Shown: piece after piece, positions 1-18,378 of the stretch
Position numbering within the stretch: the first letter of the stretch is position 1
Layout: every line of letters begins with the position of its first letter
Source: an uncultured virus (IMG/VR IMGVR_UViG_3300010356_001334)
Taxonomy: Duplodnaviria; Heunggongvirae; Uroviricota; Caudoviricetes
Length of the DNA: 20,000 nucleotides
Strand: one strand, 5' to 3'
IMG/VR virus record: IMGVR_UViG_3300010356_001334
Program-made: the position numbers and the translations under genes
Notes under the pieces: model-generated
The model's database searches: none
Told to the model about the DNA's origin: nothing
Seen by the model: the letters and a program-made list of their open reading frames with translations, nothing else

Positions 1-52
1 CTGAACCTGTTTCTGTGGTTTTTGTTGCACGCTCTTTAAATAGTTTGAGCAT
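1..52 (-). CDS. 5' end of a hypothetical gene running off the left edge (MLKLFKERATKTTETGS...)
   Basis: CAT at 50-52 with purine-rich AAAGGAAA/AGGGG upstream on the minus strand. The frame is open to the window edge but only 17 codons are visible. Confidence 0.4.
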   Translation of the reverse strand, partial: MLKLFKERATKTTETGS

Positions 53-130
53 TTTCCTTTAACCCCTTTTTCTTTAAAAAGGAGCAGTATCGATCTACGG
101 ATCACGCACGACCTTAAAAAGGAGTTCCTC

Positions 131-454
131 ATGGCACGTTGTTCTATTCGTTTTATTCTAAGTTGTTTTCTGGCTCTTACTACTTTTCATGCATATAGTG
201 CAAGTAAAGTAGAAGCATTAGAGAAATACATTTCGAGTGCTTGCAAGACGTCTTGTGTCGATCCAAGTCTTTTGTTGCTATCTGTCAACAAGGCATCAGA
301 AGAACTAGATGTAAACCCTGTGACGCTTTTGGCAATTATAGAAGTCGAGTCGTCCTTCAAGCATAGAGCGCTAAATAAAACCAATGGAAGGAGTGTGGGT
401 TTATCTCAGATCCAAGTAAGATGGCATCGAGATAAATTCACAACAACAAACTAC
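131..454 (+). pseudogene. Lytic transglycosylase (SLT-domain) protein, N-terminal part, interrupted by the IS605-family element
   Basis: RBS AAAAGGAG precedes the ATG; hydrophobic signal-like N-terminus; SLT motif I (LAIIEVESSF, catalytic Glu) and motif II (GLSQI). The last 13 codons of the called ORF 131-496 are read-through into the IS left end. Confidence 0.8.
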
Positions 455-1912
455 CTCCGAGAGCGTAAAGCTCTGTCCTTCAGGGCGGAGATGTAAGCGA
501 AGTTGTATTGTATAAAACCTATATAACCTCTCTAATGAAAGGAGTAGTGTATGACAGAAACATCTAAGCTCCTGAAGAAGGGGTTTAAGTTTCCTATCTA
601 TCCGACTGCTGAGCAACAGGAACTCATCGAGCGCACTTTCGGCTGCTGTCGTTATGTCTATAACCGCGCTTTGGCCGAGTCTAAAGAAGACTATAAGACT
701 TATGCTGAGTTGTTAGAAAAACGACTCATGGATAAACAAGCACGACCCGATGTTTCAAGCTATGGGTTGGTTAATAAGTTGCCACGCTTTAAACGCGATC
801 CAGATAGCACTTGGCTAAGTGACGTTTCAGCTGTCGCGCTCCAGCAGAGCCTGCTTCATCTTGGTGCCGCCTATGCACGCTTTTTCAGAACCAAGCAAGG
901 TTTCCCCAGGTTTAAGTGCAAGCAAGGTCGACAAAGCTTCTCACTGACAAAAGCTGCCTTTAATCTTCAAGAAAGTGGTCTTTGTATTGCTAAATGCATT
1001 ACACCCATTAAGGTTGTGTATAGCCGACCTCTCCCGTCAACACCGTCGAGTTTGACAATTAGTCGTACACCTTCAGGTAAGTACTATGTCTCTTTCATTT
1101 GTGAGTACCAACCAACACCAACCTCTGGCACACAGGTTACTGGGATCGATGTCGGCCTTAGTCATCTCTTAGTGCTTTCCAACGGCATCAAAGTCGATAA
1201 CCCACGTCACTATGTAAAAGCACAACAGCGTCTCAAGCGTGCCCAGCAAGCCCTCTCTCGTAAACAAAAAGGATCCCGTAATCGCCATAAACAACGTCAC
1301 AAGGTAGCCAAACTTCACGAACATGTCGCTAACTGCCGACGTGATCATCACCATCAGCTCTCTCGAAAGCTCGTCAACGAAAACCAAGTGATCGGTATCG
1401 AGGGACTTCAGGTGAAAAACATGATCAAGAATCGTCGACTCTCAAAGCACATCACAGATGCAGGTTGGAGAAGCTTCCGAAGCATGCTGGAGTATAAAAC
1501 AGTCGAAAGCCAGCACACCACACTTGTCGTGATGGACACCTTCTTCCCGAGCAGTCATCTCTGTGCAGCCACAGGCCAAAAGCTTGATCGTAAGCTTCTA
1601 CTTAGCGAGCGTAGCTGGGATTGTCCACACTGCGGCCAGCTTCATGATCGTGATGTGAATGCAGCTCAAGTTATCGCAACTGAAGCACTTTTTGCAGTGA
1701 GTCAATACCCTATCGATGTTGTGCGTGGAAAGATCCTGCTGGCTAATGCACGATCTGCTTAGGGAGAAGGATTTGTCAATAATCAACACCGCGATGACAC
1801 GCGGTGTCAGCCCATGGAGCGCTCTTGTGCAGTCAGACATCGCGATGAAGTGGGAAGGGGACTCCGTGAGGACCCTAGGAATCCCTGTCCTTTAGGGCAG
1901 GGAGGATGTCAA
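455..1912 (+). mobile_element. Non-autonomous IS200/IS605-family element (tnpB only, IS1341-like organisation)
   Basis: Left end: AAAG (467-470) plus hairpin CTCTGTCC-TTCA-GGGCGGAG (471-490), preceded by CTAC (451-454, one mismatch from the IS608 TTAC target). Right end: GAAT (1879-1882) plus hairpin CCCTGTCC-TTTA-GGGCAGGG (1883-1902) and terminal TCAA (1909-1912). No tnpA and no target duplication. Removing 455-1912 rejoins the flanking gene in frame. Confidence 0.88.
551..1762 (+). CDS. tnpB: TnpB RNA-guided endonuclease (TnpB-1), 403 aa
   Basis: N-terminal GFKFPIYPT..Q...FGCCRYVYN; RuvC-I GIDVG, RuvC-II IGIEGL, RuvC-III DRDVNAA; zinc-finger region CAAT...CPHC; RBS GAAAGGAG. Confidence 0.96.
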   Translation: MTETSKLLKKGFKFPIYPTAEQQELIERTFGCCRYVYNRALAESKEDYKTYAELLEKRLMDKQARPDVSSYGLVNKLPRFKRDPDSTWLSDVSAVALQQSLLHLGAAYARFFRTKQGFPRFKCKQGRQSFSLTKAAFNLQESGLCIAKCITPIKVVYSRPLPSTPSSLTISRTPSGKYYVSFICEYQPTPTSGTQVTGIDVGLSHLLVLSNGIKVDNPRHYVKAQQRLKRAQQALSRKQKGSRNRHKQRHKVAKLHEHVANCRRDHHHQLSRKLVNENQVIGIEGLQVKNMIKNRRLSKHITDAGWRSFRSMLEYKTVESQHTTLVVMDTFFPSSHLCAATGQKLDRKLLLSERSWDCPHCGQLHDRDVNAAQVIATEALFAVSQYPIDVVRGKILLANARSA

Positions 1913-1932
1913 GTTCCTAAAGTCTTAAAAGC
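1786..1932 (+). ncRNA. Predicted omegaRNA (reRNA) of TnpB-1: scaffold 1786-1912 plus ~20-nt guide GTTCCTAAAGTCTTAAAAGC from the flanking DNA
   Basis: Stem ACACCGCG/CGCGGTGT (1786-1807) with loop ATGACA complementary to TGTCA at 1907-1911 (pseudoknot as in TnpB reRNAs). CCCATGGAG...GATGAAGTGGGAA core. Scaffold ends at the IS right end. Confidence 0.78.
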
Positions 1933-1966
1933 GCACAGTCGTATCGCGAACTTGAAACTTCATTAA
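1913..1966 (+). pseudogene. C-terminal fragment of the interrupted transglycosylase (VPKVLKAHSRIANLKLH*)
   Basis: In frame with codon TAC at 452-454 once the IS is removed. Gives Y-V-P-K-V, matching the C-terminal SLT Y..KV motif, and is followed by a terminator. Confidence 0.72.
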
Positions 1967-1976
1967 ATGTATTTTA

Positions 1977-2004
1977 AGGTCTAGAGGCTAAAGCCTCTAG
2001 ACCT
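1977..2004 (+). terminator. Hairpin terminator between the SLT/IS unit and tnpB-2
   Basis: Perfect 12-bp stem AGGTCTAGAGGC-TAAA-GCCTCTAGACCT followed by a T-rich tract. Confidence 0.75.
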
Positions 2005-2020
2005 ATGTCTGTTTAAAAAG

Positions 2021-2046
2021 TTTTTTAGTCATATATATCTTACATG
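2021..2046 (+). promoter_or_regulatory. Putative phage early-type promoter for tnpB-2
   Basis: TTTTTTAGTCATATATATCTTACATG lies between a terminator and the RBS (CCGGAGAA). The TATAT-ATC-N4-ATG layout resembles the TATATTAC early-promoter motif of phiKZ; the resemblance was judged by eye. Confidence 0.45.
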
Positions 2047-2078
2047 CCATTCTTACAGAAACTAAAACCGGAGAAACT

Positions 2079-3281
2079 ATGACTCAAAATCAAAAGCCTC
2101 TGGTCAAAGGCTTTAAGTGCCGTATTTATCCAACAAAAGAACAAAAAGACTATCTTCAAAAAGTCTTTGGTTCTGCTCGGTTTATCTATAACCATCTTTT
2201 AGCTGAATTAAAAGATGAATATGAAAACTATAAAAAAGACCAAAGCATTCAAAGAACACCAATAAATAAAATATCATTAGCCTATAAACTGCCTTCTTTA
2301 AAACAAAAAGAAGAATATCAATGGTTAAACGATGCCCCTGCACAAGTTCTTCAACACGCCAGTGGTCAACTTGCAGAAGCCTTTTTAAGATTCTTTAAAT
2401 CAAAGATTGGATATCCTAGATTTAAATCTAAACACGGTCGACAATCTGTAACGTTTAGTAATCAAATCTATTCAATCGATGGCAATAGACTCAAGCTACT
2501 AAAATGCAAATCTTTGTTTAAAGTTAAGCTTCATCGAGCATTACCGTCATCTGGTTTAAAATCATGCACAGTCAGTAAAACTCCAAGTGGAAAGTATTAT
2601 GCTTCGTTTTTATGTGAGTATATTCCAGAGAAAACATCAGGAACTGGTTTTCTTGGCATTGACGCAGGCATTACTGACTTAGCAACACTTTCAAACGGAC
2701 TTATTCTTCTAAACCCAAAGCACTATGTTAAACAACAATACAGACTAGCGCAACTTTCAAGACGCCTAACTCGTAAACAAAAAGGATCAAAAAATCGAAA
2801 TAAAGCTCGACTTAAAGTTGCTAGACTTCATGATCACATAGCTAATCAGCGCTGTGATTACATGCATAAGTTCACGACAAGCGTCATACGCGAAAACCAA
2901 GCTGTCGCCATCGAGAACTTGCAAATTAGAAACATGATCAAAAACAGACGACTCTCTAAACATATTGCTGACGCAGCATGGGGTGAGATGAGACAGCAAT
3001 TGGCTTATAAAGCTATTGCTAGTCAAAACTGTCTTCTTGTTATTGCTGATCCGTATTATCCGAGTACTCAACTTTGCCATAGATGTAACACAAAACCAAG
3101 TCAGAAAATTAAACTCGGCGTGACAAAGTGGGTATGTGAATACTGCGGAGAAAAACATCAGCGTGATCATAATGCTTCTTTGAATCTTGAAGTCCTGGCA
3201 AGATCTTACTATTATCAGCAAAAGAGAAATGGAGAAATTGCTAGTATTATTTTAGCCAAACCTTATTCTCCGTTAATTTAG
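2079..3281 (+). CDS. tnpB: TnpB RNA-guided endonuclease (TnpB-2), 400 aa, without IS ends
   Basis: GFKCRIYPT..Q...FGSARFIYN; RuvC-I GIDAG, RuvC-II VAIENL, RuvC-III QRDHNAS; complete CHRC...CEYC zinc finger; RBS GGAGA. Confidence 0.96.
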   Translation: MTQNQKPLVKGFKCRIYPTKEQKDYLQKVFGSARFIYNHLLAELKDEYENYKKDQSIQRTPINKISLAYKLPSLKQKEEYQWLNDAPAQVLQHASGQLAEAFLRFFKSKIGYPRFKSKHGRQSVTFSNQIYSIDGNRLKLLKCKSLFKVKLHRALPSSGLKSCTVSKTPSGKYYASFLCEYIPEKTSGTGFLGIDAGITDLATLSNGLILLNPKHYVKQQYRLAQLSRRLTRKQKGSKNRNKARLKVARLHDHIANQRCDYMHKFTTSVIRENQAVAIENLQIRNMIKNRRLSKHIADAAWGEMRQQLAYKAIASQNCLLVIADPYYPSTQLCHRCNTKPSQKIKLGVTKWVCEYCGEKHQRDHNASLNLEVLARSYYYQQKRNGEIASIILAKPYSPLI

Positions 3282-3294
3282 TTAAGATCTTTAG

Positions 3295-3414
3295 TCAAAC
3301 TACCGTAGGGTATACGGGAAGTCAAGCCTGTGGAGAAGATCGTGAAGTAGGCGACTCGATGAAGCAGGAAGATCTGAAGTCTGGACCATACCACATCTTA
3401 ACTGAATGATACGC
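3295..3414 (+). ncRNA. Predicted omegaRNA copy A of TnpB-2: scaffold 3295-3394, guide ~ATCTTAACTGAATGATACGC (3395-3414)
   Basis: Directly after the tnpB-2 stop. Stem CCGTA/TACGG with loop GGGTA complementary to TACC at 3389-3392; GCCTGTGGAG...CTCGATGAAGCAGGAA core typical of tnpB 3' regions. The guide boundary is inferred from the pseudoknot position. Confidence 0.75.
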
Positions 3415-3452
3415 TAGTATCAATTTTAACAAAGCCCTGAAAGGAGAAAATC

Positions 3453-3656
3453 ATGGCTGCTATTCTTATTGTCATCGGATACTTCGCAGTTATCCTGAGT
3501 ATTACGATGCTGTCGATGAAACTGGTCAGGACAAAAATCATTCGAACTTTGTTCATTGGACTGGGTTTGCTCCCAAGTATTCAACTCATTATTCTTGGGG
3601 TCTTACTGGTTGAACTATATGGACAACGCGCTCTTAAAGGAGTTCATCATGAATAA
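3453..3656 (+). CDS. Small membrane protein, 67 aa
   Basis: RBS GAAAGGAG; two hydrophobic stretches separated by basic residues. Confidence 0.75.
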   Translation: MAAILIVIGYFAVILSITMLSMKLVRTKIIRTLFIGLGLLPSIQLIILGVLLVELYGQRALKGVHHE

Positions 3657-3765
3657 GGTTAAAGCTCTTTGCAAGAATGGCAATGGTCTTGTTCGGTCGG
3701 TCCTTCTGATCACCGCTGGTGTCAGTGTCTGGATGTGGCAAATTGCCACCATCCTTGACAAATAA
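3649..3765 (+). CDS. Small hydrophobic protein, 38 aa (MNKVKALCKNGNGLVRSVLLITAGVSVWMWQIATILDK)
   Basis: RBS AAAGGAG before ATG 3649, overlapping the upstream stop; followed by a terminator. This start is preferred over 3556. Confidence 0.6.
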   Translation: MNKVKALCKNGNGLVRSVLLITAGVSVWMWQIATILDK

Positions 3766-3782
3766 AAAATCATCAAATGTCA

Positions 3783-3818
3783 GGAGAGGTTTTAAACCTC
3801 TCCAGCTTTTTCTTTTTG
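3783..3818 (+). terminator. Rho-independent terminator
   Basis: GGAGAGGTTT/AAACCTCTCC stem followed by T-tracts. Confidence 0.7.
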
Positions 3819-3830
3819 AGGATTTAATAA

Positions 3831-4007
3831 ATGCCTTCAAAATCAGAGAAACAAAAGAAGTTCATGGCGGCAATTTGCCACGATGAAGAGTTTGCTAAAA
3901 AGAACCACATTGATCAAGAAGTCGCGTGTGAGTTCTTTGAGGCAGACAAACAAGAAGAAAAGAAGAAACAAGAAAGTGTTGTTGAGAAGTGGTCTAAGAA
4001 GTCTTAA
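3831..4007 (+). CDS. Small phage protein, 58 aa (MPSKSEKQKKFMAAICHDEEFAKKNHIDQEVACEFFEADKQEEKKKQESVVEKWSKKS)
   Basis: Not in the ORF track; translated by hand. RBS GAGGA upstream. The MPSKS.KQ..FMAA..H...FAKK pattern resembles a recurrent small phage protein of unknown function. Confidence 0.7.
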   Translation: MPSKSEKQKKFMAAICHDEEFAKKNHIDQEVACEFFEADKQEEKKKQESVVEKWSKKS

Positions 4008-4048
4008 AACGCGTTCTGTGCCATTTTAATTGATCTAAGGGGTCTGTC

Positions 4049-4459
4049 ATGCTCAAAGAGCTTAATAACGCCATTGGTGGCGCCTATGTGGCTTCTCATT
4101 GTGTTTCTCGTCGTGTTGATCTAGCTGGGATTCGATATGTCTCAGCATCTGATCAAGTTTGGCCTTTTAATCCCAAACTCTATGTAGAACCGATTGAAGT
4201 CGACAGTATCATCTACACAGGAGTCTACACTCTCCTTAAAGAAGATGTCGTTGATGAAGATCAATATAAACTTTCAAACTCTGAAGGTCAATATCATCTT
4301 GGAACAAAACTGGTGATGTTGAAAAACGATCTTCATCTTCAGATTTTTGATGGTGAAGATGCTTGGCACGAATTCATTCCGAAAGGAAGTCAGGTTGCTA
4401 AAGTGCTTCGAAATGGTCGAGTATATTGGGCAGTGATCTATGCTCAAATCATCCATTAA
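4049..4459 (+). CDS. Hypothetical protein, 136 aa
   Basis: ORF with AAGGGG RBS-like sequence; same strand as its neighbours; no recognisable motif. Confidence 0.65.
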   Translation: MLKELNNAIGGAYVASHCVSRRVDLAGIRYVSASDQVWPFNPKLYVEPIEVDSIIYTGVYTLLKEDVVDEDQYKLSNSEGQYHLGTKLVMLKNDLHLQIFDGEDAWHEFIPKGSQVAKVLRNGRVYWAVIYAQIIH

Positions 4460-4480
4460 GAGACCCTGCTCTTAGAAAAA

Positions 4481-4505
4481 AGATAACAGTGTACATCTCT
4501 AGTGA
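4481..4505 (+). promoter_or_regulatory. Putative promoter for the stand-alone omegaRNA
   Basis: AGATAACAGTGTACATCTCTAGTGA has the same ATC-N4-(A/G)TG layout as 2037-2046. It follows a small hairpin (TAAGAG/CTCTTA, 4457-4474) and lies ~25 nt before the scaffold. Confidence 0.35.
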
Positions 4506-4530
4506 GGAAAGCAAGTTATACTAGCAATTC

Positions 4531-4650
4531 TCAAACTACCGTAGGGTATACGGGAAGTCAAGCCTGTGGAGAAAATCGTGAAGTAGGCGACTCGATGAAG
4601 CAGGAAGATCTGAAGTTTAGATCATGCCACATCTCTATTGAACGATGCTA
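4531..4650 (+). ncRNA. Stand-alone omegaRNA copy B: scaffold 4531-4630, guide ~ATCTCTATTGAACGATGCTA (4631-4650)
   Basis: 95/100 identical to 3295-3394 with no tnpB attached. Pseudoknot partner is TGCC (G-U compatible with loop GGTA); hairpin GATCTGA-AGT-TTAGATC at 4607-4623. Confidence 0.75.
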
Positions 4651-4776
4651 CCACACATCGCTTCAGTTCTTTCTTAAAGAGTGGCTTGAGCTCAACACTT
4701 TTTAATGGAAGATTTTCTTAACGCAAGTAGTTTCCTGTGGCAATCTGCCATAATACCATAAATGAAGGAGTAATCT

Positions 4777-5229
4777 ATGTCCCGCGCAAAACGTGATGAG
4801 AATCTGGTCAACGCCATCGCTTCGTCGCTGTCCAAGGTAACCGATGGTGTGATCTCGTCGGACGGTGATGTCTTTAACAGCAATCTGCCGGAAGGTCTGA
4901 CTCCGGAAACGGTTGAAGCAGTTTCCAACTATACCACGGCTTTCGTTGCCAGTGGTCTGGAAGCGGTTGGTAAGGCCGCAGTGTCTGCCATGGAAAAAGA
5001 CAAGAAGCTGAATAATGTTTCGGCTGAAATTCCCATGGGCGCTTTCGGTAGCGTCGGTTACGGTGTAACCCGTAGTCGTGAAGCTGTGGTTCCGGGTACG
5101 GACAAGACCACAACGGTCTATGGCGGCACCAAGGCAAATGTGGCTTTTGTGGCTGGCAAGAACGCTGGTCAACTGGCTGCTGCTAAGCGCTCTATCAAAG
5201 AGATGGCTGAAGAAGCACTGAAGAAGTAA
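4777..5229 (+). CDS. Conserved jumbo-phage hypothetical protein, 150 aa
   Basis: Strong RBS GAAGGAG, biased codon usage like the sheath and tube genes, own terminator. The LPEGLTPETV pattern is recalled from phiKZ-like phage proteins; function not assigned. Confidence 0.85.
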   Translation: MSRAKRDENLVNAIASSLSKVTDGVISSDGDVFNSNLPEGLTPETVEAVSNYTTAFVASGLEAVGKAAVSAMEKDKKLNNVSAEIPMGAFGSVGYGVTRSREAVVPGTDKTTTVYGGTKANVAFVAGKNAGQLAAAKRSIKEMAEEALKK

Positions 5230-5243
5230 TCTGTTCTGATGAC

Positions 5244-5292
5244 ATAGAGGGAGAGGGCCTAGGCCCTCTCCCTCTGTATCAGTATTTTTTTT
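5244..5292. terminator. Terminator between convergent genes
   Basis: AGAGGGAGAGGGCC-TA-GGCCCTCTCCCTCT inverted repeat followed by a long T run. Confidence 0.85.
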
Positions 5293-6015
5293 TTACCATC
5301 GAGCATAAATAGATTTATTTTCAACTGAAAGGTTTGCAGTTACCAATAGTTTTTCTTTTAAGAAATCTGACTTTGAAATCTCTTTAATTGTAGTTGTTTT
5401 ATATGTATTCCATGTTGAGTTACGATTATAATCAAACGTAATCTCATAATAGCCTGGATTTAAAACATTAACAGAATCAAAGTGAAATCTTTTCTTAATT
5501 TCAACTTTGATTGTTATAACGTATTTTGGTTCTTGATTAATTTGAGGTAATGCTTTTAACTCAGATACATAGAGCTTACCAATTTGCTCTGGGATATATG
5601 TTCTGGTGTTTTCATTGTATGTAACTAGCCAGTGTTCATTACTAGCACGCACATCATAGACTAATCGAGCATTTGGTTTTAATGCATATTCAAAAGAAAT
5701 TGCATTAATATAAAGTCCACCTTTCCATCCTTCATTCTTTCCTTGATATCCAGCATCTAAGACATCATAAGGAAGAACAGCATAACCAATGATTGCTCCA
5801 TATAGGCATGTTGAAGCTGTAATCCGTGGTGTTGTTCGGTCTTCCATATTTGCTTGCCTAAATCCAATACGCGGAATATAGACATTAGGACGATCTTTCG
5901 TAATATGGATAAGGAAGGGATCGGGAAGCTGGTTGGCTGTTACGATGGTGATATTTTTCTGAACTTTATCAGGAAGGCGTTTGATAAAAAATTCAAGTTC
6001 TTGAAGAGAAGACAT
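5293..6015 (-). CDS. Hypothetical phage protein, 240 aa
   Basis: Long AT-rich ORF with motif-like segments H-I-T, YIPRIG, EDRTTPRITAS and EHWLV. Confidence 0.8.
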   Translation of the reverse strand: MSSLQELEFFIKRLPDKVQKNITIVTANQLPDPFLIHITKDRPNVYIPRIGFRQANMEDRTTPRITASTCLYGAIIGYAVLPYDVLDAGYQGKNEGWKGGLYINAISFEYALKPNARLVYDVRASNEHWLVTYNENTRTYIPEQIGKLYVSELKALPQINQEPKYVITIKVEIKKRFHFDSVNVLNPGYYEITFDYNRNSTWNTYKTTTIKEISKSDFLKEKLLVTANLSVENKSIYARW

Positions 6016-6069
6016 TGTTCTTTAGTCCTAGTGTGCGTTACCACTGGATCTTTCAAATGAACAGTGGGA

Positions 6070-6105
6070 GACACAGGGAGAAGGCGAAAGCCTTCTCCCT
6101 GTGTC
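6070..6105. terminator. Hairpin terminator downstream of the tail tube gene
   Basis: 16-bp perfect stem GACACAGGGAGAAGGC-GAAA-GCCTTCTCCCTGTGTC. Confidence 0.8.
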
Positions 6106-6144
6106 AGCACTAGCTTTCTTTTTTGGCTTTTAGACCATTAAAGA

Positions 6145-7014
6145 TTAGATCACATTACCTACGCGAGCCTGGGCAATATTCTCAGTCGACTCTTTATACC
6201 CTTTTTCAATCGAAGCTACATCAGCAGAGATTGACTTAATAAAGGATTCGCGTACCTGTGGTGAACTCCATACTTTATTGATCCCATCGAGCAACTCTTG
6301 ACCAAACACACGTGTACCTTCATTGATAAAGGTCAGCGAGGTCATTTCAACCGAGAGTTCCTTAATCGAAAGCGCAGACGTTTTATCCATCTTGCCTTCA
6401 ATCGGACCTGTGCCTTGCGGCCAGACGTTCGTCGAGATCCAGGTGCGGACAACGCGCTTACCCGTCGGATCCGGTTCAATGAAGGCAATTGTGCCACCAT
6501 ACCAGTCGGCCAGGTTATCAGTCGGACCACCACCTTCGAGCGTCGCTGTCAGCGGGGTCTTGGTCTCAGGATGCATCAGACCATACATAATCCAACGTTC
6601 CAGGAAGTTCTGGAAGACGTTGCCATATTTCTCAACCATATTGATGGTCAGAGTGGAGCGCTCACGCTTGACATCCGTGAACTCCTGGAAGAATTCACCA
6701 CCACCACCAAACGCGTGTTCCGCCACTTCAACCGTCAGGCCAGCCTTCAACCCTTCAATGGTACGAGCGTGTTTTTCAATCATCACCTTCCACGCCGTCA
6801 CCCACTTATCCGGATCAGGCATGAATTGGAAGAATTCAGGCGACTCCAGAACGATCGGGATCAGGTTACGCGGAACATAAGCTTGAGCCGAGACCCATTC
6901 AGCCGGGTTCGTGGCCCAGCCAAATTGACCACCCAGCATTGGGTCAAGCTGAGGCATTTCATTGCCAGAAGACCAAGCCTTAGCGCCAAGCAGCGCATCG
7001 GTAAGACGTGCCAT
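6145..7014 (-). CDS. Tail tube protein (phiKZ gp30-like), 289 aa
   Basis: Directly downstream of the sheath; size and motifs (GGQFGW, QAYVPRNL, EPDPT, NVWP..TG) fit phiKZ-like tube proteins; RBS AAGGAG. Confidence 0.85.
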   Translation of the reverse strand: MARLTDALLGAKAWSSGNEMPQLDPMLGGQFGWATNPAEWVSAQAYVPRNLIPIVLESPEFFQFMPDPDKWVTAWKVMIEKHARTIEGLKAGLTVEVAEHAFGGGGEFFQEFTDVKRERSTLTINMVEKYGNVFQNFLERWIMYGLMHPETKTPLTATLEGGGPTDNLADWYGGTIAFIEPDPTGKRVVRTWISTNVWPQGTGPIEGKMDKTSALSIKELSVEMTSLTFINEGTRVFGQELLDGINKVWSSPQVRESFIKSISADVASIEKGYKESTENIAQARVGNVI

Positions 7015-7045
7015 GTTTATTTACTCCTTAAATGTAGAAGAGGGA

Positions 7046-9124
7046 TTACTCGCCCGCGTAGTCTTCGATACGACGAGCGACCACGTAAGTCGTCATCACC
7101 GTCTTCATACCCGCAGCCCAGATATCGATCGGCAGCGTCCAGGAGTAGTTACGCACTTCATCCAGACTGGTGAAATAAGCGCGCGGACGAATCACAAAGC
7201 GATCGTCAAACTTACCACGGACTTGCTCACTCACGAAGTCATTCACACGCTTAGTGAACTGAGCAGGCGTCAGACCCGAGATACCAGAGAAGGTACGATG
7301 CGCCTTGTGAGCAATCTTGTTCAGCTGAATGATAGCGCAAGCTGTCAGATAGCTCGTCAGGACCGAGGTATCGTCGCCATAGACCGTCTTGATTGCCGGG
7401 AAGACATAGCTGGTGCGATCATAGCGGGTAACCCAGTTCAGACCCACATCCCAGTTACGGTTACGCACGTTATCAGGCGTCCAACGGATCGACAGGTCAT
7501 ACTGTTCTTCAACCAGCGAACCAGGGAAGCCATCGAAGTTACGACCATTCTTCCAGATGCCGTTCCCAGCACCCATATAACGCGCCGACTTCACACCCAG
7601 TTCATAGGTCAGCGGGACCGGATTGACGATCTGACTGGCACGAATACGACCCACGCAACCTTGGATCAGGGCACGGAAGACCGGTGTACCAAAATAGGTC
7701 GATTCAGGATGCAGTGACAGACGCGATTGCAGCGCAGCAGCAACCGAATACTCTTCAGCAGCCGTCAGAACGCGCTCACCATACTCCGAAGGCGACAGGA
7801 CCACGAAGGTGTCCTTACGGTTCGAGATAAACGAGATCAGGTCATATTTGGTCTCGAGCGGGAAACCCGTGTCGTAGATATGACTTTCAACGTGATAAGC
7901 GATGTCGTTCAGTTCATCATTCTCGTTGGCGTAGCGCTTCATGTACTCCGAGACGAGTTGAGCGTGCAGTTCATGCGACATCGTACCGTCACTACCGCCA
8001 CCGGCATAGACGTTGGTCGATTGCGAGAACCGAACTGCGTCATCCGAATCTGTAAAGATGTAGCTGTGGTAAGGAACGTTTTGCGAAGTCGTACCGGTCA
8101 CAAAGTTAAAGAGGTGCTTATCTTCAACATCAGCCGTAAAGTCCGAATCATCATTCAAGAACGGCACTTCGGCTGCTTGGAACTGAGCCAGCAGCAGATC
8201 AATGTTCTCTTGATAAACCTTCACACGACCAAATTCACCATACTGCTTCGCGTAGCGCGGATCCTTCAGACTCTGGTAGTCTTCAATCGCACGTTCACCA
8301 AAATACAGGCGAGAAGTCGTCAGCGGATCAACCACTTCCGGCTTGAAGCTCACCATGATCTGCTGTTCGCCAAAGGTGGATTCCACCATCTTCGCCGAAC
8401 CCGTTGCTGCGTTCTTACGAATCACAGCCATCATGTACGGATAAACCTTCTCACGCGCCATCAGTTTGGTAGGCAGTGCTGATTGGTTATCTGCATTGAT
8501 CGACCACAGACGGATACCGGCCAGGTTACCGTCCTTACCAATGAACGAATGCTCCAGTTCAAAGATCGGATAACGCTGCGACTGAACGCTCGTTGCCGGA
8601 TCAACTTGGTCACCAACAACAATACCAGCCGCACCAAAGGTTTCAGCCAGCGCATGGGTATCCAGATGCTGAACCACAAACTTGACACGGTGACCCGCGG
8701 CCTGACCCGTGATGATTGGATCACCTGCTACGTCAGTCTTAATCGAACCGTCGCTATTGCGCTGATAGATATCAACTTGAGTCGGGAGCACATCCAGATA
8801 GACACGCAGCGTGGGCTTCGGACCTGCATCCACCGGGATCATACGGACATACATTGCCGCATTGCCTTCCGCATTCACGCCATTGGAATGAAGAGTCTGG
8901 TGGTTGAAATACTCACTACGCTCAGTGAACGTTTCTTCACCATACATCTGAAGACGTTCATTGCCCACCAGGAGTTCTTCCGTGGTCGGACCCTTCTGGG
9001 CATAGATAAAGTACTTCGGCAGATGCTGTGGAAGCTCCTCGGGAGCGCGGCCATAGGGCCGGGTGCTCAGATCCTGGACGCCATAGTCAACAACTCCCGG
9101 CGCGCCATTAATGATGGTTTTCAT
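7046..9124 (-). CDS. Contractile tail sheath protein (phiKZ gp29-like), 692 aa
   Basis: INGAPG...G.QD.S N-terminus, PQHLP...YAQKGP, GGSDGT, YDTGFPLETK, and a C-terminal FPAIKTVY.DDTSVL sheath domain; size and gene order. Confidence 0.92.
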   Translation of the reverse strand: MKTIINGAPGVVDYGVQDLSTRPYGRAPEELPQHLPKYFIYAQKGPTTEELLVGNERLQMYGEETFTERSEYFNHQTLHSNGVNAEGNAAMYVRMIPVDAGPKPTLRVYLDVLPTQVDIYQRNSDGSIKTDVAGDPIITGQAAGHRVKFVVQHLDTHALAETFGAAGIVVGDQVDPATSVQSQRYPIFELEHSFIGKDGNLAGIRLWSINADNQSALPTKLMAREKVYPYMMAVIRKNAATGSAKMVESTFGEQQIMVSFKPEVVDPLTTSRLYFGERAIEDYQSLKDPRYAKQYGEFGRVKVYQENIDLLLAQFQAAEVPFLNDDSDFTADVEDKHLFNFVTGTTSQNVPYHSYIFTDSDDAVRFSQSTNVYAGGGSDGTMSHELHAQLVSEYMKRYANENDELNDIAYHVESHIYDTGFPLETKYDLISFISNRKDTFVVLSPSEYGERVLTAAEEYSVAAALQSRLSLHPESTYFGTPVFRALIQGCVGRIRASQIVNPVPLTYELGVKSARYMGAGNGIWKNGRNFDGFPGSLVEEQYDLSIRWTPDNVRNRNWDVGLNWVTRYDRTSYVFPAIKTVYGDDTSVLTSYLTACAIIQLNKIAHKAHRTFSGISGLTPAQFTKRVNDFVSEQVRGKFDDRFVIRPRAYFTSLDEVRNYSWTLPIDIWAAGMKTVMTTYVVARRIEDYAGE

Positions 9125-9162
9125 GTGTCAAATCCTCTCTTTAGAAGAAGTGGAGAAAAAGA

Positions 9163-10158
9163 ATGCCTCTGTTCAAAACGAGTTACGATACAACGGTGGG
9201 TAAGATCTTCGATATGAAGAAACTAGATCTTTCCCTGAAAGAAGCTTTGATCACCGGGAGTCTCGGTTATCGGCGGCTTGGGGTAGAAAAGATCGATCAA
9301 TGCGCTGCTGTCTTTGTGATTGGAGGGCCTGATGAAAACAACATTCCTCCTTTTATCCACCCCTACCTTATTCAGAACTATAAAGGTCAGAATTATTTAA
9401 TTTCTGATCTTCGTTTATTCCGTCCAAATTCACGAGAGTTTTTGACCGAGCGTGAGTTTGAACTGAATGTTCGGAATAAGACAGAATATGGACTTTCTAA
9501 GAGTCGTGCTGTCCTGAATCTGCTTTGGCTCTCGGACTCAGTTTCAAGTCTTCGTACTCGCTTCTCCTTTGCAGGTTCAGTGTTTGCCACTTGGTTAAGT
9601 CAAGCTATTGCCAGAGCATACGCTTTAGATTTCCAAGAACAAATGAAAGTAACAGCTGTAGGAATGTACTATTACTACAGCCTTTTCACCACAGAGACTC
9701 GCCTCACCGATAGTGCGCTTGAAACAGCAGTCATCCATACCATTAAGACGACAAAAATCCCTGCATCTGAAGTCTATTCTTTATTTGAAGGCTTAGGTGA
9801 GATTAAGGGGATTGAAGACTACTGTAATGAAGTCAAAAAAGTTGTTGAGAATGTTCGATTGCGTGACTTTAACCTAGCCATGCTTTTAACGTTAGTTCGT
9901 AATACGTGGTATGGTACAAATTCAAAAGATCTGATTAGCGTTGCACTGGAACATCCGCCTACTTGGATCTCAATCGTTTATGCGACAGCTACTGAGCGCA
10001 GCTATAAGTCGTCTATGTTGTATAAAATTGTGGAATTGCAAGCCAAGCGTGGCAATGGTGATGAGTTCTTGATGAACTATAAGTCTTTGATGAAAGAAAC
10101 TGTTGTGAGTTTTGAAGACGCTGATAATGAAATCGTCTTTAAAGACTTTGAGGACTGA
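9163..10158 (+). CDS. Virion structural protein (phiKZ gp28-like by position), 331 aa
   Basis: Divergent from the sheath; IPPF.HP and ALEHPPTW motifs; gene order matches the phiKZ gp25-gp30 block. Confidence 0.75.
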   Translation: MPLFKTSYDTTVGKIFDMKKLDLSLKEALITGSLGYRRLGVEKIDQCAAVFVIGGPDENNIPPFIHPYLIQNYKGQNYLISDLRLFRPNSREFLTEREFELNVRNKTEYGLSKSRAVLNLLWLSDSVSSLRTRFSFAGSVFATWLSQAIARAYALDFQEQMKVTAVGMYYYYSLFTTETRLTDSALETAVIHTIKTTKIPASEVYSLFEGLGEIKGIEDYCNEVKKVVENVRLRDFNLAMLLTLVRNTWYGTNSKDLISVALEHPPTWISIVYATATERSYKSSMLYKIVELQAKRGNGDEFLMNYKSLMKETVVSFEDADNEIVFKDFED

Positions 10159-10163
10159 GAACC

Positions 10164-12755
10164 ATGTTTTCATTTCTCAGAGACCATGCCAGTAAGAATG
10201 TGTGGTGTAGTCCTGAGCAAGATAATCAAGTTATCTTAGCTGCTCAACGCATCACACGTCCAGGGGGAGAGTTGATCTCTTTCCCTATTATGACGCGTCG
10301 TATCGAGCTTCCTACAAAAGATCGTCGCTACCACATTTTTCAAGTTGGACAAGCCCATCCTTCTGTGCTTGGACTACTACCTCGGTTTCCAAACTGGACA
10401 AAGGCTTCTTGGAAGAAGTTTAGCGACACGGTTGAAAAACTTCCTTTGTTCTGTGATCTCTATACAGACACAGGGGTACATCTCGCACTACATCGTGCGT
10501 ACTATATGTATACCGATGATCGCGCTCTGATCTTTGCAATTGATCTCACAGGAAAATCTCCTATTGACTATCAGCGAGATCAGATCTACCTGCGTCTTTA
10601 CACCAATGCATTCTTTGAAAGTAATCAAGGCGCTGCCTTAGTTAACAAGACTCAGACAGGCGGACTGACAATTCAACGTAGCAGCGACATCTTAGCAATT
10701 CAGACTCAGGTAATTCAAAAGCGTTTATTACCTGGACAAGTTTTTTGTTTTATCAATGGTCACTTAGTTGACGAGATTAATCTGTTTACGGCTAAGATAG
10801 GCGATGTCGTCGAATACATCTATGACGCTTCTATTAAACGAATTGTAGATTTAAAAGTTGAGAGCCTGAAGACATTTACAAGCACGCTCGATAGTAGTTA
10901 TAAATATCTTCTTCATTATCCAAAAACTGGAGAAGACATGATTGACTATGTCGACGATATTGACGTTTATGTGCTTAAGAAAGATGGTGCTCGATTCAAA
11001 GGTCAATACCTTCATCGCAATAAAGAAGACGCGCTCAGGATGGTCACGCATCGTGACTATAGTGTTCCGGTTGATACCTTTGAACACATTGCACGGTCTT
11101 TAGCTGAACTTACCAGCCTTCAGCCGCTTGATCTTCGAGAATTCTATATTCGTCTTTATATCAGAAACAGTGGTCTGAAAAGACCACTTGTCTATGACCA
11201 TCAAAGAATCTTTGAGCTCTATAAACTTGATGATAATGATGTTGTTAACGCCATGGTTGGAGTTGACGCCGTTATTCCTGAGTGGACTGCAACACAGCTA
11301 GAAGACTCCGCCTATACGGAGTTGATGAGAACACCGTATAATGAAATCAACATTGATCTCATTGAACGTGCATACGGGTATAACGCTATTACCAAGATTA
11401 TTGGCGATACTCCGACTAAAACACGTCTATTTAACGGGGTTCAGATCATAGAACTCCCCATTGGACTCTATGAGAAAAGTACCGTTTATGAATACGACGC
11501 GAATGGTGTTCTTTTAGAATACCACCAGCACATGCTCGGAACGGTCTATAGCGCGCGAAATAGTCAAACTAGGATTGTTGAAGGTGTAGCGGGTCTAGGA
11601 AGTAATGAACCTTCTGTGATCTATGGCCTAGACAATATTAATCTCCCATCTACTTATAGCTATCGCGTCTATATGTGTTATTTGGTCGATGGTTTACCCA
11701 ATAATGACTGGCGCGATATTACTGACTCTAATCTTTATCACGTTGTTGATGATGTTCTTATCTGGAACAATCTGGAAACTGAACAGTACTTAATGGTCAG
11801 AACAGATGAAAAGTTCTTAACTTATACACTTGAACTTCATGCTGTTGCTGGAACCTATTATTTTGATCTCACTGAGACCGTGGATGGACTTGAAAGAGTC
11901 ATGACGGTTCCAATGGGAGATTTGGATATTTGGCTCAATGGTAAAGCACTTATTCAAGGTCTTGACTATGTGGTGGACTTTCCACGCGTGATGATCTTCA
12001 ATAAAGCTTACCTGAGACAACCTGCAGGATCTTCTTCACAAACCATTGTTGTTCGTTTTACTGGGTTCTGTGATGAAAACTTAAAGATGCGACAACCTGA
12101 AGACTATGGTTTTATTGAACATGGTGTTCTGTCTAATGATTCTGAATTCGATATCCGTGACGATAAGGTCTTGAGGATCACCGTACGTGGCGACGTTAAG
12201 CATCGTTCAGATCTTAAGTTTTCTGAAGATCACAGTGGTGTCAGTATTGTTGATGTCTTAAATGGTGCACCCTATCAAATCAAAGACGTCATTGTACCAT
12301 TGAGAACTCTGACACATGAAGAGACCTATCGTCTTCGTGCACGCTCTGAAGACCTTGATCAGAGAATCGAAGAGTACATGACGTTGAAGTATCCGCAACC
12401 TGACAGAGACGCAGTCAGTGCCATTTCAAATCGTCATATGCTCTATAGTCCTTTCTTTAGTCATATTGTCAGTGATTTGGCTTCTGGTCAAATTGATAAG
12501 ACACGACTAGAAAGGGTATTAGAAGAAACGGATGTTCTTGAGTTATGTGCACCGTATGAGTACTTACTTGAGACTGATCCTTTGAATGAAAACTTAAAGA
12601 TAGACCAACGTTATATTGTTATTCATCCGACACAGCTAACTTCAGCGGTTGGGCTTGATCTCTATAGCTATAAATTCATGCAGCGTGTCGTTGCGCTCTA
12701 TGGAAAAGGTCTGATCCAATTAAGTCCGTATTTAAATGTATCTTTAGGAGGTTAA
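10164..12755 (+). CDS. Large virion structural protein (phiKZ gp27-like, probably tail/baseplate), 863 aa
   Basis: NVWCSPEQD.Q N-terminus, RMVTHRDYS, AYGYNA, WLNGKALIQGLDY; size and gene order. Confidence 0.8.
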   Translation: MFSFLRDHASKNVWCSPEQDNQVILAAQRITRPGGELISFPIMTRRIELPTKDRRYHIFQVGQAHPSVLGLLPRFPNWTKASWKKFSDTVEKLPLFCDLYTDTGVHLALHRAYYMYTDDRALIFAIDLTGKSPIDYQRDQIYLRLYTNAFFESNQGAALVNKTQTGGLTIQRSSDILAIQTQVIQKRLLPGQVFCFINGHLVDEINLFTAKIGDVVEYIYDASIKRIVDLKVESLKTFTSTLDSSYKYLLHYPKTGEDMIDYVDDIDVYVLKKDGARFKGQYLHRNKEDALRMVTHRDYSVPVDTFEHIARSLAELTSLQPLDLREFYIRLYIRNSGLKRPLVYDHQRIFELYKLDDNDVVNAMVGVDAVIPEWTATQLEDSAYTELMRTPYNEINIDLIERAYGYNAITKIIGDTPTKTRLFNGVQIIELPIGLYEKSTVYEYDANGVLLEYHQHMLGTVYSARNSQTRIVEGVAGLGSNEPSVIYGLDNINLPSTYSYRVYMCYLVDGLPNNDWRDITDSNLYHVVDDVLIWNNLETEQYLMVRTDEKFLTYTLELHAVAGTYYFDLTETVDGLERVMTVPMGDLDIWLNGKALIQGLDYVVDFPRVMIFNKAYLRQPAGSSSQTIVVRFTGFCDENLKMRQPEDYGFIEHGVLSNDSEFDIRDDKVLRITVRGDVKHRSDLKFSEDHSGVSIVDVLNGAPYQIKDVIVPLRTLTHEETYRLRARSEDLDQRIEEYMTLKYPQPDRDAVSAISNRHMLYSPFFSHIVSDLASGQIDKTRLERVLEETDVLELCAPYEYLLETDPLNENLKIDQRYIVIHPTQLTSAVGLDLYSYKFMQRVVALYGKGLIQLSPYLNVSLGG

Positions 12756-12759
12756 GACA

Positions 12760-14427
12760 ATGGCAGGTAACGTTGTAGGTTCAGTCGATGGCGTGGTGCC
12801 TATCTATGACCCAGAAGGACTGTGGCGGATCTGGGATATCAATGTTGTCTGGCAGGGTGAATATGGTTCTAATCGTTTTGTTCCTCGTCAGAACGACTAT
12901 GTCATCGACCCCATGACCTTTGAGACATGGATCGTAGACCATCTTGATCCGGTTACGCTGGTTCCGACATTGCGTTCAATTAAACCGGCTGGAATGAACT
13001 ATTCTTTATCTGAAGACGATGTTCTTTTTGGCGTAGGTCCGGGTAGTGACGCTGAGACCTATCGTGCGTATCTGAACGATAGCGTCTATCCGCACACACT
13101 AGCAGTGGATCAACGTCTTAAGATCCATGGAACCATGAGTAGCTATGCTAAGATCTTCTTGGGTTCTGATACCAGTGAAGCGCGCGGTGAAGTGATCTCA
13201 AAGGTTTATGATGCAAGTGGTAACTTTATTTCAACTTCTGTACCACTAGAGCTTGTCGCTTTAGATAGCCATGTTAACTACGCAGTTAAATCAGTTAAAC
13301 GCTGTCACATTACTCGAAAGATTCCAAATAATGAAAGGATCACCGTTGTCATTTATGCTGATGACGGCCATGTCGTCTCTAAGCGACAGCTCCTTATTGA
13401 AAACACGGATACCATTACTGATGTCAACGCCGGTACAAAATACATCACGGAAATCTCCTTGGAATCGATCTGGCTATCTCCTACGGTGGCGGATCAGCTG
13501 GACTATCCGTTAAATATCCCAATGGACGCCCTCAACATGGTGGGCGTCGTCCATTATTCAGATGGGACTAAACTGAAGCTTCCTGTTGATGGTGGTAAGT
13601 TTGCCATGCTAGGTCTTCAGGGTCGTCTTTCGTCAATCATCGGACAACCTCATGAGTTGGTCTTACGCTATCTCATGTCACCAGGTGAAATCGCCTATGC
13701 GTCCACCGGTGTCAACGGGAAGTACATTACCAAACCCTTTAGGATCGTGACAACAAACCCCAATAACAGCATTGCAGTGAAGCTCTTTGGCTATCCTTTC
13801 TGGGAAGGAGAAGCTTTTGGGTATCGCATGCGCTGGTGGTTGCTGAATTTAACACGCAATATTCGGTTTGAAGTGACGAACCATGTTAAGTTTGCAGAAA
13901 ACACAGGACCGTATGACCCTAAACTTTACGGCTACCTTCAAAGAAAGGCTGTCTCGATCAATTTGAGAGACGTCTCTGGTAGCTTTATTCCATTCATCCA
14001 TACACAAGTGGTTGATATCGTCCTGAATGAACCGCCGACAAATGCGCTACAAGCCGCTTGGACTGTCACGACCGAGTCTAATGAGAGCTATCCGCGTTTT
14101 GGGGTTCAAGTCTATGGCTTAAAGAACAATAACCTTGTTAACTTTAAAGCGGGACATGAAACCTTTAATGATTGGTTAAAGGCGTATTATCGTGACACGC
14201 TTCCATTGGTCAATACGCTTCAAGAAAATGAAGCACCTTCTCCAACGCACTTTATTGTGACGTATGGCAATGACCAGACCGAGTGGTCAATTAGTCAATG
14301 GGATCAAGATCTCAATATAAGCGCTACTGTTAATACTGGAACGACTGCGCTGATTCGGTTCATTCGCCGAACTGCGTCAGGTGACCTTCAGTTGAGCTAT
14401 GCGGCTGCAATGATTAAAGGTGTTTAA
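12760..14427 (+). CDS. Virion structural protein (phiKZ gp26-like), 555 aa
   Basis: RBS AGGAGG; G.DG.VP.YDP...W..W N-terminus; beta-rich; third gene of the divergent structural operon. Confidence 0.78.
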   Translation: MAGNVVGSVDGVVPIYDPEGLWRIWDINVVWQGEYGSNRFVPRQNDYVIDPMTFETWIVDHLDPVTLVPTLRSIKPAGMNYSLSEDDVLFGVGPGSDAETYRAYLNDSVYPHTLAVDQRLKIHGTMSSYAKIFLGSDTSEARGEVISKVYDASGNFISTSVPLELVALDSHVNYAVKSVKRCHITRKIPNNERITVVIYADDGHVVSKRQLLIENTDTITDVNAGTKYITEISLESIWLSPTVADQLDYPLNIPMDALNMVGVVHYSDGTKLKLPVDGGKFAMLGLQGRLSSIIGQPHELVLRYLMSPGEIAYASTGVNGKYITKPFRIVTTNPNNSIAVKLFGYPFWEGEAFGYRMRWWLLNLTRNIRFEVTNHVKFAENTGPYDPKLYGYLQRKAVSINLRDVSGSFIPFIHTQVVDIVLNEPPTNALQAAWTVTTESNESYPRFGVQVYGLKNNNLVNFKAGHETFNDWLKAYYRDTLPLVNTLQENEAPSPTHFIVTYGNDQTEWSISQWDQDLNISATVNTGTTALIRFIRRTASGDLQLSYAAAMIKGV

Positions 14428-14439
14428 GCACATTTAAAG

Positions 14440-14471
14440 CACAGGGAGAAGGCGAAAGCCTTCTCCCTGTG
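14440..14471 (+). terminator. Hairpin terminator identical to 6072-6103
   Basis: CACAGGGAGAAGGC-GAAA-GCCTTCTCCCTGTG just after the stop at 14427. Confidence 0.8.
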
Positions 14472-14563
14472 ATCACCTTTGGAATTTATTTCAGTCACTT
14501 AAATTTAATTAGAGTAGTAGATGTGTTTACCTGTTTAACTCTTTTATCTCCGGAGAACCTACC

Positions 14564-15478: not shown

Positions 15479-15485
15479 CCGTTAA

Positions 15486-15530
15486 TAGAGAGCGAAGGGA
15501 TATCCCTTCGCTCTCTAGTATTTTTTTTTT
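15486..15530. terminator. Terminator between convergent genes
   Basis: TAGAGAGCGAAGGGA-TA-TCCCTTCGCTCTCTA followed by ten T residues. Confidence 0.85.
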
Positions 15531-15855
15531 AATCTTCAAGAAGCTTTTCAAGATTTTGATGATGTAACCACTGACCAATGGTACTTCGTTTATGAATTGC
15601 TTGATTTTGAATCATATTAATGTCTAGATCAGACGCTTTACACAAAAGATGAATTCCATTTAATACATCTCCGAGTTCTTTTTCAAGATGTTGTCGATTT
15701 GTAATTTGTTCAGGGTTATGAGGGTTTTGACTCTCATAGCCGTGTTGAAGAATTTTTCCGATAACTTGAACAGATTCTCCAAGCTCTCCCATAAGTACTG
15801 AAAGTCTCTCTAGTTCAGCAGGAGAGAGTTGATTAAAAGGTTGTTCATATAACAT
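15529..15855 (-). CDS. MazG-like all-alpha NTP pyrophosphohydrolase, ~108 aa
   Basis: LMGELGESVQVIGKILQHG...NRQHLEKELGDVL matches the E..E / E..D helical motifs. Start placed at ATG 15855 behind an AAGGAA RBS instead of 15897. Confidence 0.72.
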   Translation of the reverse strand: MLYEQPFNQLSPAELERLSVLMGELGESVQVIGKILQHGYESQNPHNPEQITNRQHLEKELGDVLNGIHLLCKASDLDINMIQNQAIHKRSTIGQWLHHQNLEKLLED

Positions 15856-18257: not shown

Positions 18258-18328
18258 ATAGGGGCAGACCTTAAAATAGGGTGTTACTCACTCACCACGA
18301 TTTCTTGTGTTTATTTAAAAAGAACAGA

Positions 18329-18374
18329 GATGATACAGCGAGAGAGGCTATAATGCCTCTCTCGCTGTATCATC
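18329..18374 (-). terminator. Long hairpin terminator
   Basis: 20-bp perfect stem GATGATACAGCGAGAGAGGC/GCCTCTCTCGCTGTATCATC just after the stop of 18379-18792, with a T-tract on the minus strand. Confidence 0.8.
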
Positions 18375-18378
18375 GCAC

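Follow-up and report, generated by a model that had tools for sequence, protein, structure and literature searches.

A TnpB element and a protein-less omegaRNA unit, putatively homing, assort independently at fixed sites in phiKZ-like jumbo phages

Introduction

In characterised insertion sequences (IS) of the IS200/IS605 type, the guide of the omegaRNA is the DNA beside the right end of the element, and the RNA-guided nuclease TnpB cuts the element-free allele at a target-adjacent motif (TAM), as described in excerpts of two papers (PMC10055086, PMC13565253). Excerpts of the former, the 2023 preprint of Meers et al., state that PATE-like elements often encode omegaRNAs requiring TnpB in trans, and protein-less omegaRNA mini-elements served in this way have thereby already been described (PMC10055086). 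The excerpted text of the latter treats homing into coinfecting phages, and spread without TnpA, as recognised categories (PMC13565253). Here we analyse a 20,000-nt stretch of an uncultured tailed phage (IMG/VR record IMGVR_UViG_3300010356_001334), hereafter the window, in which two plus-strand units carry near-copies of one omegaRNA scaffold: IS2, which encodes the nuclease TnpB-2, and unit B, which encodes no protein.

IS2 shares with the ISDra2-type, IS1341-like TnpB-only elements the same three Pfam domains, a full-length protein alignment with an intact D-E-D triad and zinc finger, a structured scaffold at the 3' side, a predicted right-flank guide and a sharp insertion beside a short motif. 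It departs from them in lacking recognisable subterminal hairpins, in having a left end of only 36 nt that holds the ribosome-binding site (RBS), in placing its scaffold wholly after the stop codon, in repeating the left-flank motif as its own last bases, and in having been found so far at one site only, in phages. Unit B resembles the PATE-like elements of PMC10055086: it is likewise short and non-coding, has a complete scaffold and a flank as guide, and would need TnpB in trans. Unlike PATEs as excerpts of that source present them, it lacks palindromic ends, its left part bears no relation to the IS2 left end, and it is so far seen as one copy only, at a fixed site between 9-nt direct repeats. 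With free-standing or intron-borne homing endonuclease genes of phages and 'transposon non-restorative homing', as outlined in excerpts of PMC13565253, the two units share a site-specific presence/absence polymorphism, a predicted target in the empty allele, and the same expected super-Mendelian inheritance and competitor damage in co-infection. Unlike the homing endonucleases in that text, recognition here would be by an RNA guide, unit B has no nuclease gene and no co-conversion of flanks is visible. TldR-type domesticated TnpB repressors, in the excerpted account of PMC10705468, likewise pair a TnpB relative with a guide RNA without transposon end hairpins; unlike them, TnpB-2 has an intact RuvC domain, its locus is polymorphic and the guides match only the elements' own flanks. 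A TnpB/omegaRNA element accompanied by an orphan omegaRNA unit is of a known kind; what is unusual at this locus is the lack of end hairpins, the flanking repeats and the two similar target sites.

Results

IS2 and unit B are sharp and independent presence/absence units

IS2, unit B and a neighbouring TnpB-only element, IS1, are inserted or missing independently of one another among phages about 90% alike, as three distinct insertion/deletion units. The window belongs to a phiKZ-like jumbo phage, as judged from Pfam matches to the phiKZ gp28 vertex protein, gp29PR, the tail tube family Phage_TTP_14 and DUF7193, and the nearest cultured relatives of its 863-aa protein are found in Burkholderia and Ralstonia jumbo phages (about 38% identity). 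We compared it with L082, an IMG/VR contig of 72,962 nt (27% of a genome) that was retrieved via the neighbouring phage protein encoded at 4777-5229 and has about 90% nucleotide identity to the window. Other comparisons used Logan contigs from runs X2, X6, X19 and X20, and the nearest phage record, G001, which spans only the window-equivalent of 6102-20000 (16.6 kb). A 7.2-kb JGI contig, L003, comes from the same phage (99.9% identity over 506-7715).

IS2 occupies positions 2043-3400 of the plus strand (1358 bp) and consists of a 36-nt left part with the RBS, the gene tnpB-2 and omegaRNA scaffold A. L082 aligns to the window from 1913 to 2042 and then straight on from 3395, with the hexamer ATCTTA common to both junctions. 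It lacks exactly 2043-3400, that is tnpB-2 plus scaffold A, with sharp ends and ATCTTA at both sides; owing to this 6-nt repeat, the boundary of IS2 can shift left by up to 6 nt. The empty site of L082 reads ...ATATATCTTA, followed by the post-scaffold-A sequence of the window with one base changed. The left copy of ATCTTA (2037-2042, plus strand), which ends the AT-rich backbone sequence, is the candidate TAM. A contig of run X6 that lacks IS1 terminates at 2042, the left boundary of IS2. The GC content is 0.32-0.42 in IS2 versus 0.51-0.55 in the structural genes.

The backbone left of IS2 (1977-2042, plus strand) is present in L082 and holds a terminator-like hairpin of 12 pairs (1977-2004, terminator scan) and an AT-rich stretch. 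A first-pass annotation made from the sequence had listed both features, together with an RBS shared with a phage gene further downstream, and had inferred that tnpB-2 is expressed by the phage. The hairpin and the AT-rich stretch stand, and the position of tnpB-2 just downstream of them makes phage transcription plausible. The shared RBS fares less well: CCGGAGAA is present twice in the window, at 2068 and 14550 only, which is weak evidence with 0.39 copies expected and 14 of 200 shuffles reaching 2.

Unit B (4502-4637, plus strand) is a protein-less block of 136 nt, made of a 29-nt left part (4502-4530) and scaffold B, that ends in ACATCTCTA. The left copy of this 9-nt repeat (4493-4501, plus strand) is the target of the unit and its candidate TAM. 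A contig of run X20 connects 4492 to 4629, omitting 136 nt, and the 9-nt ACATCTCTA fits either side of the junction. A contig of run X6 connects 4505 to 4677 with 32 other letters between, a weaker case than X20 in which the short side measures 28 nt. L082 carries the scaffold-B unit in the same place and arrangement as the window. Since L082 has unit B without IS2 and the X20 and X6 relatives are without unit B, the two units assort independently.

These absences, of a 1358-bp block in a relative about 90% identical and of a 136-nt block in two relatives, do not support the first-pass annotation where it took the tnpB-2 unit to be immobile and domesticated. It had named sharp-ended copies at unrelated loci as the sign of mobility: the sharp ends agree with the spirit of this condition, but no copy of IS2 or unit B was found elsewhere in the window, in L001, in the 73-kb L082 contig or in IMG/VR. 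As to the apparent single-copy state that would set unit B apart from PATEs, there is one unit B in the window, one orthologous copy in the L082 contig and no other exact match in IMG/VR. The identical sequences that flank the sharp ends of IS2 (6 nt) and of unit B (9 nt) can be read as a TAM plus a transposon-encoded motif (TEM), as a duplication, or as the product of microhomology recombination.

DNA folds of the ends of IS2 and unit B revealed no strong subterminal hairpins on inspection, in agreement with the first-pass annotation, which had contrasted the tnpB-2 unit with the neighbouring IS1. The only stem found at the IS2 ends, of 7 bp (2093-2113), lies inside the start of the tnpB-2 open reading frame (ORF), whereas the right end of IS1 has a 9-bp stem. 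This call rests on inspection, as shuffle z-scores fail to separate IS2 from IS1. No Y1 transposase or resolvase domain was detected by Pfam among the 20 ORFs of the window.

TnpB-2 is an intact nuclease so far found at one site

The gene tnpB-2 (2079-3281, plus strand) encodes an ISDra2-like RNA-guided nuclease of 400 aa. Its three Pfam domains, HTH_OrfB_IS605, OrfB_IS605 and Cas12f1-like_TNB, all pass the curated cut-offs (E-values 1.2e-17, 5.2e-30 and 2.2e-15), and residues 10-371 align to the solved ISDra2 TnpB 8H1J (E 2.5e-67). The RuvC residues D195/E279/D363 and the zinc-finger residues C333/C336/C353/C356 are invariant in 15/15 aligned relatives of 59-97% identity, and align with the matching motifs of 8H1J under the catalytic residue numbering of ISDra2 TnpB. 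The D-E-D triad and C4 zinc finger that had been noted at first sight are thus borne out. TnpB-2 is 46% identical to TnpB-1, the nuclease of IS1 (tnpB-1, 551-1762).

The closest relatives of TnpB-2, at 95%, 86%, 67% and lower identity, lie on ENA/Logan contigs, and several of the best protein matches are on contigs of 187-274 kb, the size of a jumbo phage. TnpB-2 belongs to a cluster of 16 members at at least 90% identity. Three members of 418 aa (P0122, P0126 and P0132) carry 18-residue N-terminal extensions, which translate the left part of IS2 together with the left flank in the backbone (VIYIL), just as found in the window. This indirect view of the flank shows that these carriers hold the gene at the same site. 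The first-pass annotation had proposed a search among related phages; tnpB-2 turned up in the same position wherever the left flank of a carrier is readable, and tnpB-less scaffolds in two other contigs (L005 and L006, see below). The occurrence of tnpB-2 at one site in all checkable carriers suggests a homing-like distribution, not scattered transposition.

Outside these contigs, close relatives were not found. A tblastn search of 50,697 cultured phage records identified 423 with a TnpB, all under 60% identity and the best of them 41.5% identical to TnpB-2; a megablast search with the locus gave no match in the same records, and blastn gave one 116-nt match at 75.9%. Searching IMG/VR viral contigs with the TnpB-2 protein gave no match, 185,579 species genomes gave a single match at 30% identity, and metagenome contigs gave only L003 plus TnpB-2 relatives at no more than 51%. 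The tnpB-2 element so far looks site-specific and phage-borne.

Two side observations concern this gene. In P0005 and P0006, relatives with 64-65% identity, the TnpB ORF extends into the scaffold with a C-terminal extension that contains GSQACGEDR, and the position of the stop codon relative to the omegaRNA therefore varies within the clade. In run X6, the depth of tnpB-2 is low relative to the backbone, which is a hint only.

Two copies of a structured scaffold are followed by different predicted guides

The segments 3295-3410 and 4531-4646 are 92% identical over 116 nt at a spacing of 1236 nt, and 95.2% identical across the first 104 nt; no further repeat of comparable length occurs within positions 1-6000. 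Scaffold A (3295-3400, plus strand) is structured over 3295-3396, with the element end at 3400, while scaffold B (4531-4632, plus strand) has no tnpB. We aligned both copies with six homologous sequences from other contigs. The consensus fold of these 8 sequences (RNAalifold) has 22 pairs, 5 of them with compensatory changes, and a closing stem whose start coincides with the first base of the repeat. In the 20-kb window, a covariance model derived from the alignment detects 2 copies and no more, with 95.1 bits for scaffold A and 94 bits for scaffold B; it detects no scaffold in the 16.6 kb of G001. Repeat and covariance model thus agree with the first-pass annotation that a second scaffold, about 95% identical, lies 1236 nt downstream without tnpB and with a different 3' sequence. 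No Rfam family reaches its threshold at either copy: RAGATH-18 stays at 26.6 and 27.1 bits, below its gathering score of 44.9. An exact scaffold 30-mer had no match in IMG/VR, and two other exact patterns matched only the L082 contig there.

Guides of characterised TnpB systems are taken to be 16 nt long, and on this assumption guide A would be 3401-3416 and guide B 4638-4653, both on the plus strand and both in the backbone flank. Guide A equals the L082 empty site bar one base. Neither guide has another match in the window at up to 3 mismatches. The sequences that follow scaffolds A and B differ in register and are alike over about 11 nt with a 1-nt offset. The target sites of IS2 and unit B are alike across the insertion point, with a local score of 10 that 112 of 19,869 random pairs of backbone 30-mers reach. 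This likeness hints, not strongly, at sequence-directed and perhaps guide-directed site choice. A shared promoter-like motif was considered as the cause of the similar target sites: TGAAYGAT occurs 6 times versus 2.6 expected, 11 of 200 shuffles reach 6, and a longer degenerate promoter-like pattern matched unrelated places only, so that the idea of a shared motif was dropped.

The locus is covered in part by contigs from the RNA libraries X19 and X20, two of those from X19 starting with adapter at 3419 and 4546. Such contigs are unable to show transcription or RNA ends, and nothing was drawn from them.

The first-pass annotation had further seen in the two scaffolds a minimal CRISPR-like system. 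This is at odds with their layout: two scaffolds 1236 nt apart with four backbone genes between them, no array, and guides that are the units' own flanks.

Unit B is an island of conservation

Between the window and L082, positions 4493-4637 are 98.6% identical over 145 nt (2 differences), whereas the left flank (33 nt) is 72.7% and the right flank (139 nt) 82.0% identical, and the neighbouring genes 87-91%. The conserved block includes the 29-nt left part, which is not homologous to anything in IS2, and the unit starts cleanly ahead of the first base of the closing stem. Such an island has two readings: purifying selection maintains a functional RNA unit, or the unit arrived at this site recently and independently in each phage. 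It fits neither a decaying relic nor homing with long co-conversion tracts.

A TATACT hexamer at 4517-4522 ends 8 nt before scaffold B, within the conserved left part, and could be the promoter -10 of an omegaRNA made on its own. It went unflagged in the promoter scan; promoters of jumbo phages are unlike those of the sigma-70 type. The left part also holds, at 4513-4529, a 17-nt inverted match (88%) to the 3' end of tnpB-2 (3236-3252), which by our estimate is about at chance level in 6 kb; its position is curious, and we made no use of it.

Scaffolds with and without tnpB recur in related contigs

Homologous scaffolds lie downstream of TnpBs about 50% identical to TnpB-2 in L005, L006, L008 and L010, and the covariance model matches 3' of tnpB in the window and in L005, L006, L008, L010, L007, L042, L051/52 and L011. 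L005 encodes a chimallin homologue and is by this token another nucleus-forming jumbo phage. It has one tnpB-less scaffold (4854-4951), about 100 nt upstream of the chimallin gene (5053-6885) and on the same strand. L006 has two, each of which retains 90-120 nt of a truncated tnpB 3' end. In this clade of about 50% identity, homology among independent copies begins only about 13 nt before the ATG, which points to a very short left end as a trait of the family. Another copy in the same locus was present for 14 of the 70 tnpB 3' ends probed, mostly as a second full tnpB.

The neighbouring element IS1 and the surrounding backbone

IS1 (455-1912, plus strand) is a TnpB-only element of the IS200/IS605 type with hairpin ends, inserted in an SLT-like (lytic transglycosylase) gene. 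In L082 and in a contig of run X6, position 454 is followed by 129 other nt and then by 1913; L082 matches the window over 2-454, after which these 129 nt replace IS1. The SLT-like gene (131-496 and 1913-1966) is broken by IS1 in the window, where its ORF enters IS1 after residue ~108 and the gene lacks 129 nt (43 codons) next to the insertion, and is intact in L082 (168 aa, 6020-6526). A 98%-identical TnpB-1 (393/403 residues) is encoded at another locus of the L082 contig (L083, 337-1566), and this copy keeps the same right-end hairpin and TCAA end. IS1 occurs with other flanks in runs X2, X19 and X20, and a tnpB-less mini form that joins 502 to 1789 in X20 and X2. IS1 is clearly mobile. A sub-threshold Rfam match to HgcC was recorded at 1793-1925.

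Four small phage backbone genes lie between the scaffolds on the plus strand (3453-3656, 3649-3765, 3831-4007 and 4049-4459); they are present and collinear in L082, and phrog_16759 matches 3831-4007. Further downstream, three successive 100-nt bins (5701-6000) match L082 at 100% identity, with adjoining bins at 81-90%; a recent recombination tract may span the 5' half of gene 5293-6015 on the minus strand (phrog_5043). One GC-rich terminator hairpin is found twice, at 6070-6105 and 14440-14475; assembly graphs of run X2 cross between these two sites, with loose ends at 6103/6104.

Discussion

We are inclined, with somewhat better than even confidence, to see IS2 and unit B as two independent selfish TnpB/omegaRNA homing units in an intergenic stretch of a jumbo phage of the nucleus-forming type. 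The proposal builds on an intact nuclease, a conserved and structured scaffold, units that are polymorphic at fixed sites and empty alleles that carry guide-matching sequence; expression, RNA processing, the TAM, the use of omegaRNA-B by TnpB-2, cleavage and homing are its predicted parts. IS2 would be a non-autonomous TnpB/omegaRNA element whose nuclease is made from a phage transcript, and omegaRNA-A would be cut out of the 3' end of the transcript that carries tnpB-2. Unit B would be a protein-less omegaRNA unit that borrows TnpB-2 in trans. The guide of each omegaRNA would be the stretch of backbone that adjoins the right end of its own insertion, and the ribonucleoprotein (RNP) would as a consequence recognise the uninterrupted 'empty' allele of related phages, the presumed targets being ATCTTA beside guide A and ATCTCTA beside guide B. 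During a mixed infection, the RNP would cut the empty allele, which would then acquire the unit through repair templated by the carrier genome. This TnpA-independent, 'non-restorative' homing would simultaneously damage the competitor. Among the roles that the first-pass annotation had listed, homing and the cutting of related phages thus appear the best supported, and a domesticated use for the phage's benefit is not supported.

Several observations weigh against this proposal. The left-flank motif, ATCTTA or ACATCTCTA, also forms the last bases of the unit, and if it is the TAM, the occupied locus would be targeted as well, which raises a problem of self-cleavage. The flanks of unit B are only 73-82% identical between its two carriers, with no co-conversion tract. 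Homing by homologous repair should co-convert flanks; these values suit a vertically inherited RNA under selection, or a site-specific insertion, no less well. Unit B is not a simple internal deletion of IS2, as its left part (4502-4530) bears no relation to the IS2 left end. No tnpB-2 was found in the L082 contig, which covers 27% of a genome, to serve the unit B that it carries.

Three other explanations were weighed. A Y1 TnpA of the host or phage might move both units by ordinary peel-and-paste transposition, IS2 as a non-autonomous IS200/IS605 element and unit B as its PATE, with TnpB only restoring excised copies. TnpB-2 is indeed closest to the ISDra2 TnpB, from an element of the Y1-TnpA family, the ends are sharp with the same short motif at the left flank and at the element end, like a TAM and a TEM, and the adjacent IS1 clearly transposes, as its second locus, its other flanks and its mini form attest. 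However, no subterminal hairpins were seen at the ends of IS2 or unit B, their left ends are unrelated, no copy was found at another locus in the sequences searched, and the repeat shared by flank and end is 6 nt in IS2 versus 9 nt in unit B, not one fixed motif. We therefore hold this explanation to be unlikely.

We give still less credit to the view of TnpB-2 as a domesticated, immobile phage tool with two or more stand-alone guides, cutting competitors or regulating phage promoters, which we regard as improbable. The absence of recognisable hairpin ends and of tnpA in the window, the shared site of tnpB-2 in carriers with a readable left flank, the conservation of unit B far above its flanks and its persistence in L082 without an adjacent tnpB-2 would all suit such a tool, as would the recurrence of tnpB-less scaffolds in other contigs, one of them just upstream of a chimallin gene. 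Nevertheless, both units are sharp presence/absence polymorphisms among phages about 90% identical, the guides equal their own flanks and match nothing else in the window, and the 20 kb hold only 2 scaffolds, 1.2 kb apart, with four backbone genes between them. RuvC is moreover intact, unlike in the known domesticated TnpB repressors as excerpts of PMC10705468 describe them, and the GC content of IS2 is well below that of the structural genes. Least likely, by a small margin, is that scaffold B is a dead relic without function, the right end that remained when an older full-length copy lost its tnpB. Such decay is seen in the family, since the two tnpB-less scaffolds of L006 keep 90-120 nt of a truncated tnpB 3' end. 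Scaffold B, in contrast, belongs to a stretch with 2 differences in 145 nt relative to L082 while the flanks differ by 18-27%; it keeps the whole fold and a clean start before the closing stem, and its clean 136-nt absence in two relatives resembles a unit rather than erosion.

Homing by TnpB/omegaRNA units, the reading that we prefer, could be taken a step further. Unit B might be a free-living gene for a guide RNA. With 136 nt and no protein of its own, it would home from one jumbo phage to another on a borrowed TnpB-2 and colonise new sites when a guide finds a near-cognate sequence ('RNA-guided ectopic homing'). The similar target sites, the conservation of unit B above its flanks and its survival in L082 without an adjacent tnpB-2 led us to this idea, which we put forward as a speculation that is rather unlikely to be correct. 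If it were true, a clade of jumbo-phage TnpBs with satellite guides of this kind would form a natural intermediate from a transposon nuclease with one guide to a CRISPR-like system with many.

Cas12 descends from TnpB, and this locus bears on the open question of how a transposon nuclease with a single guide gained the use of several independent ones. If the units were ordinary IS debris, the finding would be routine annotation. As observed, a natural phage population contains a TnpB element and a guide-RNA-only unit that segregate independently at fixed sites, with predicted targets in relatives. In nucleus-forming phages, only phage-encoded nucleases are expected to reach the DNA. The locus may thus offer a concrete system for RNA-guided homing, for the use of orphan omegaRNAs in trans and for RNA-guided competition between nucleus-forming phages.

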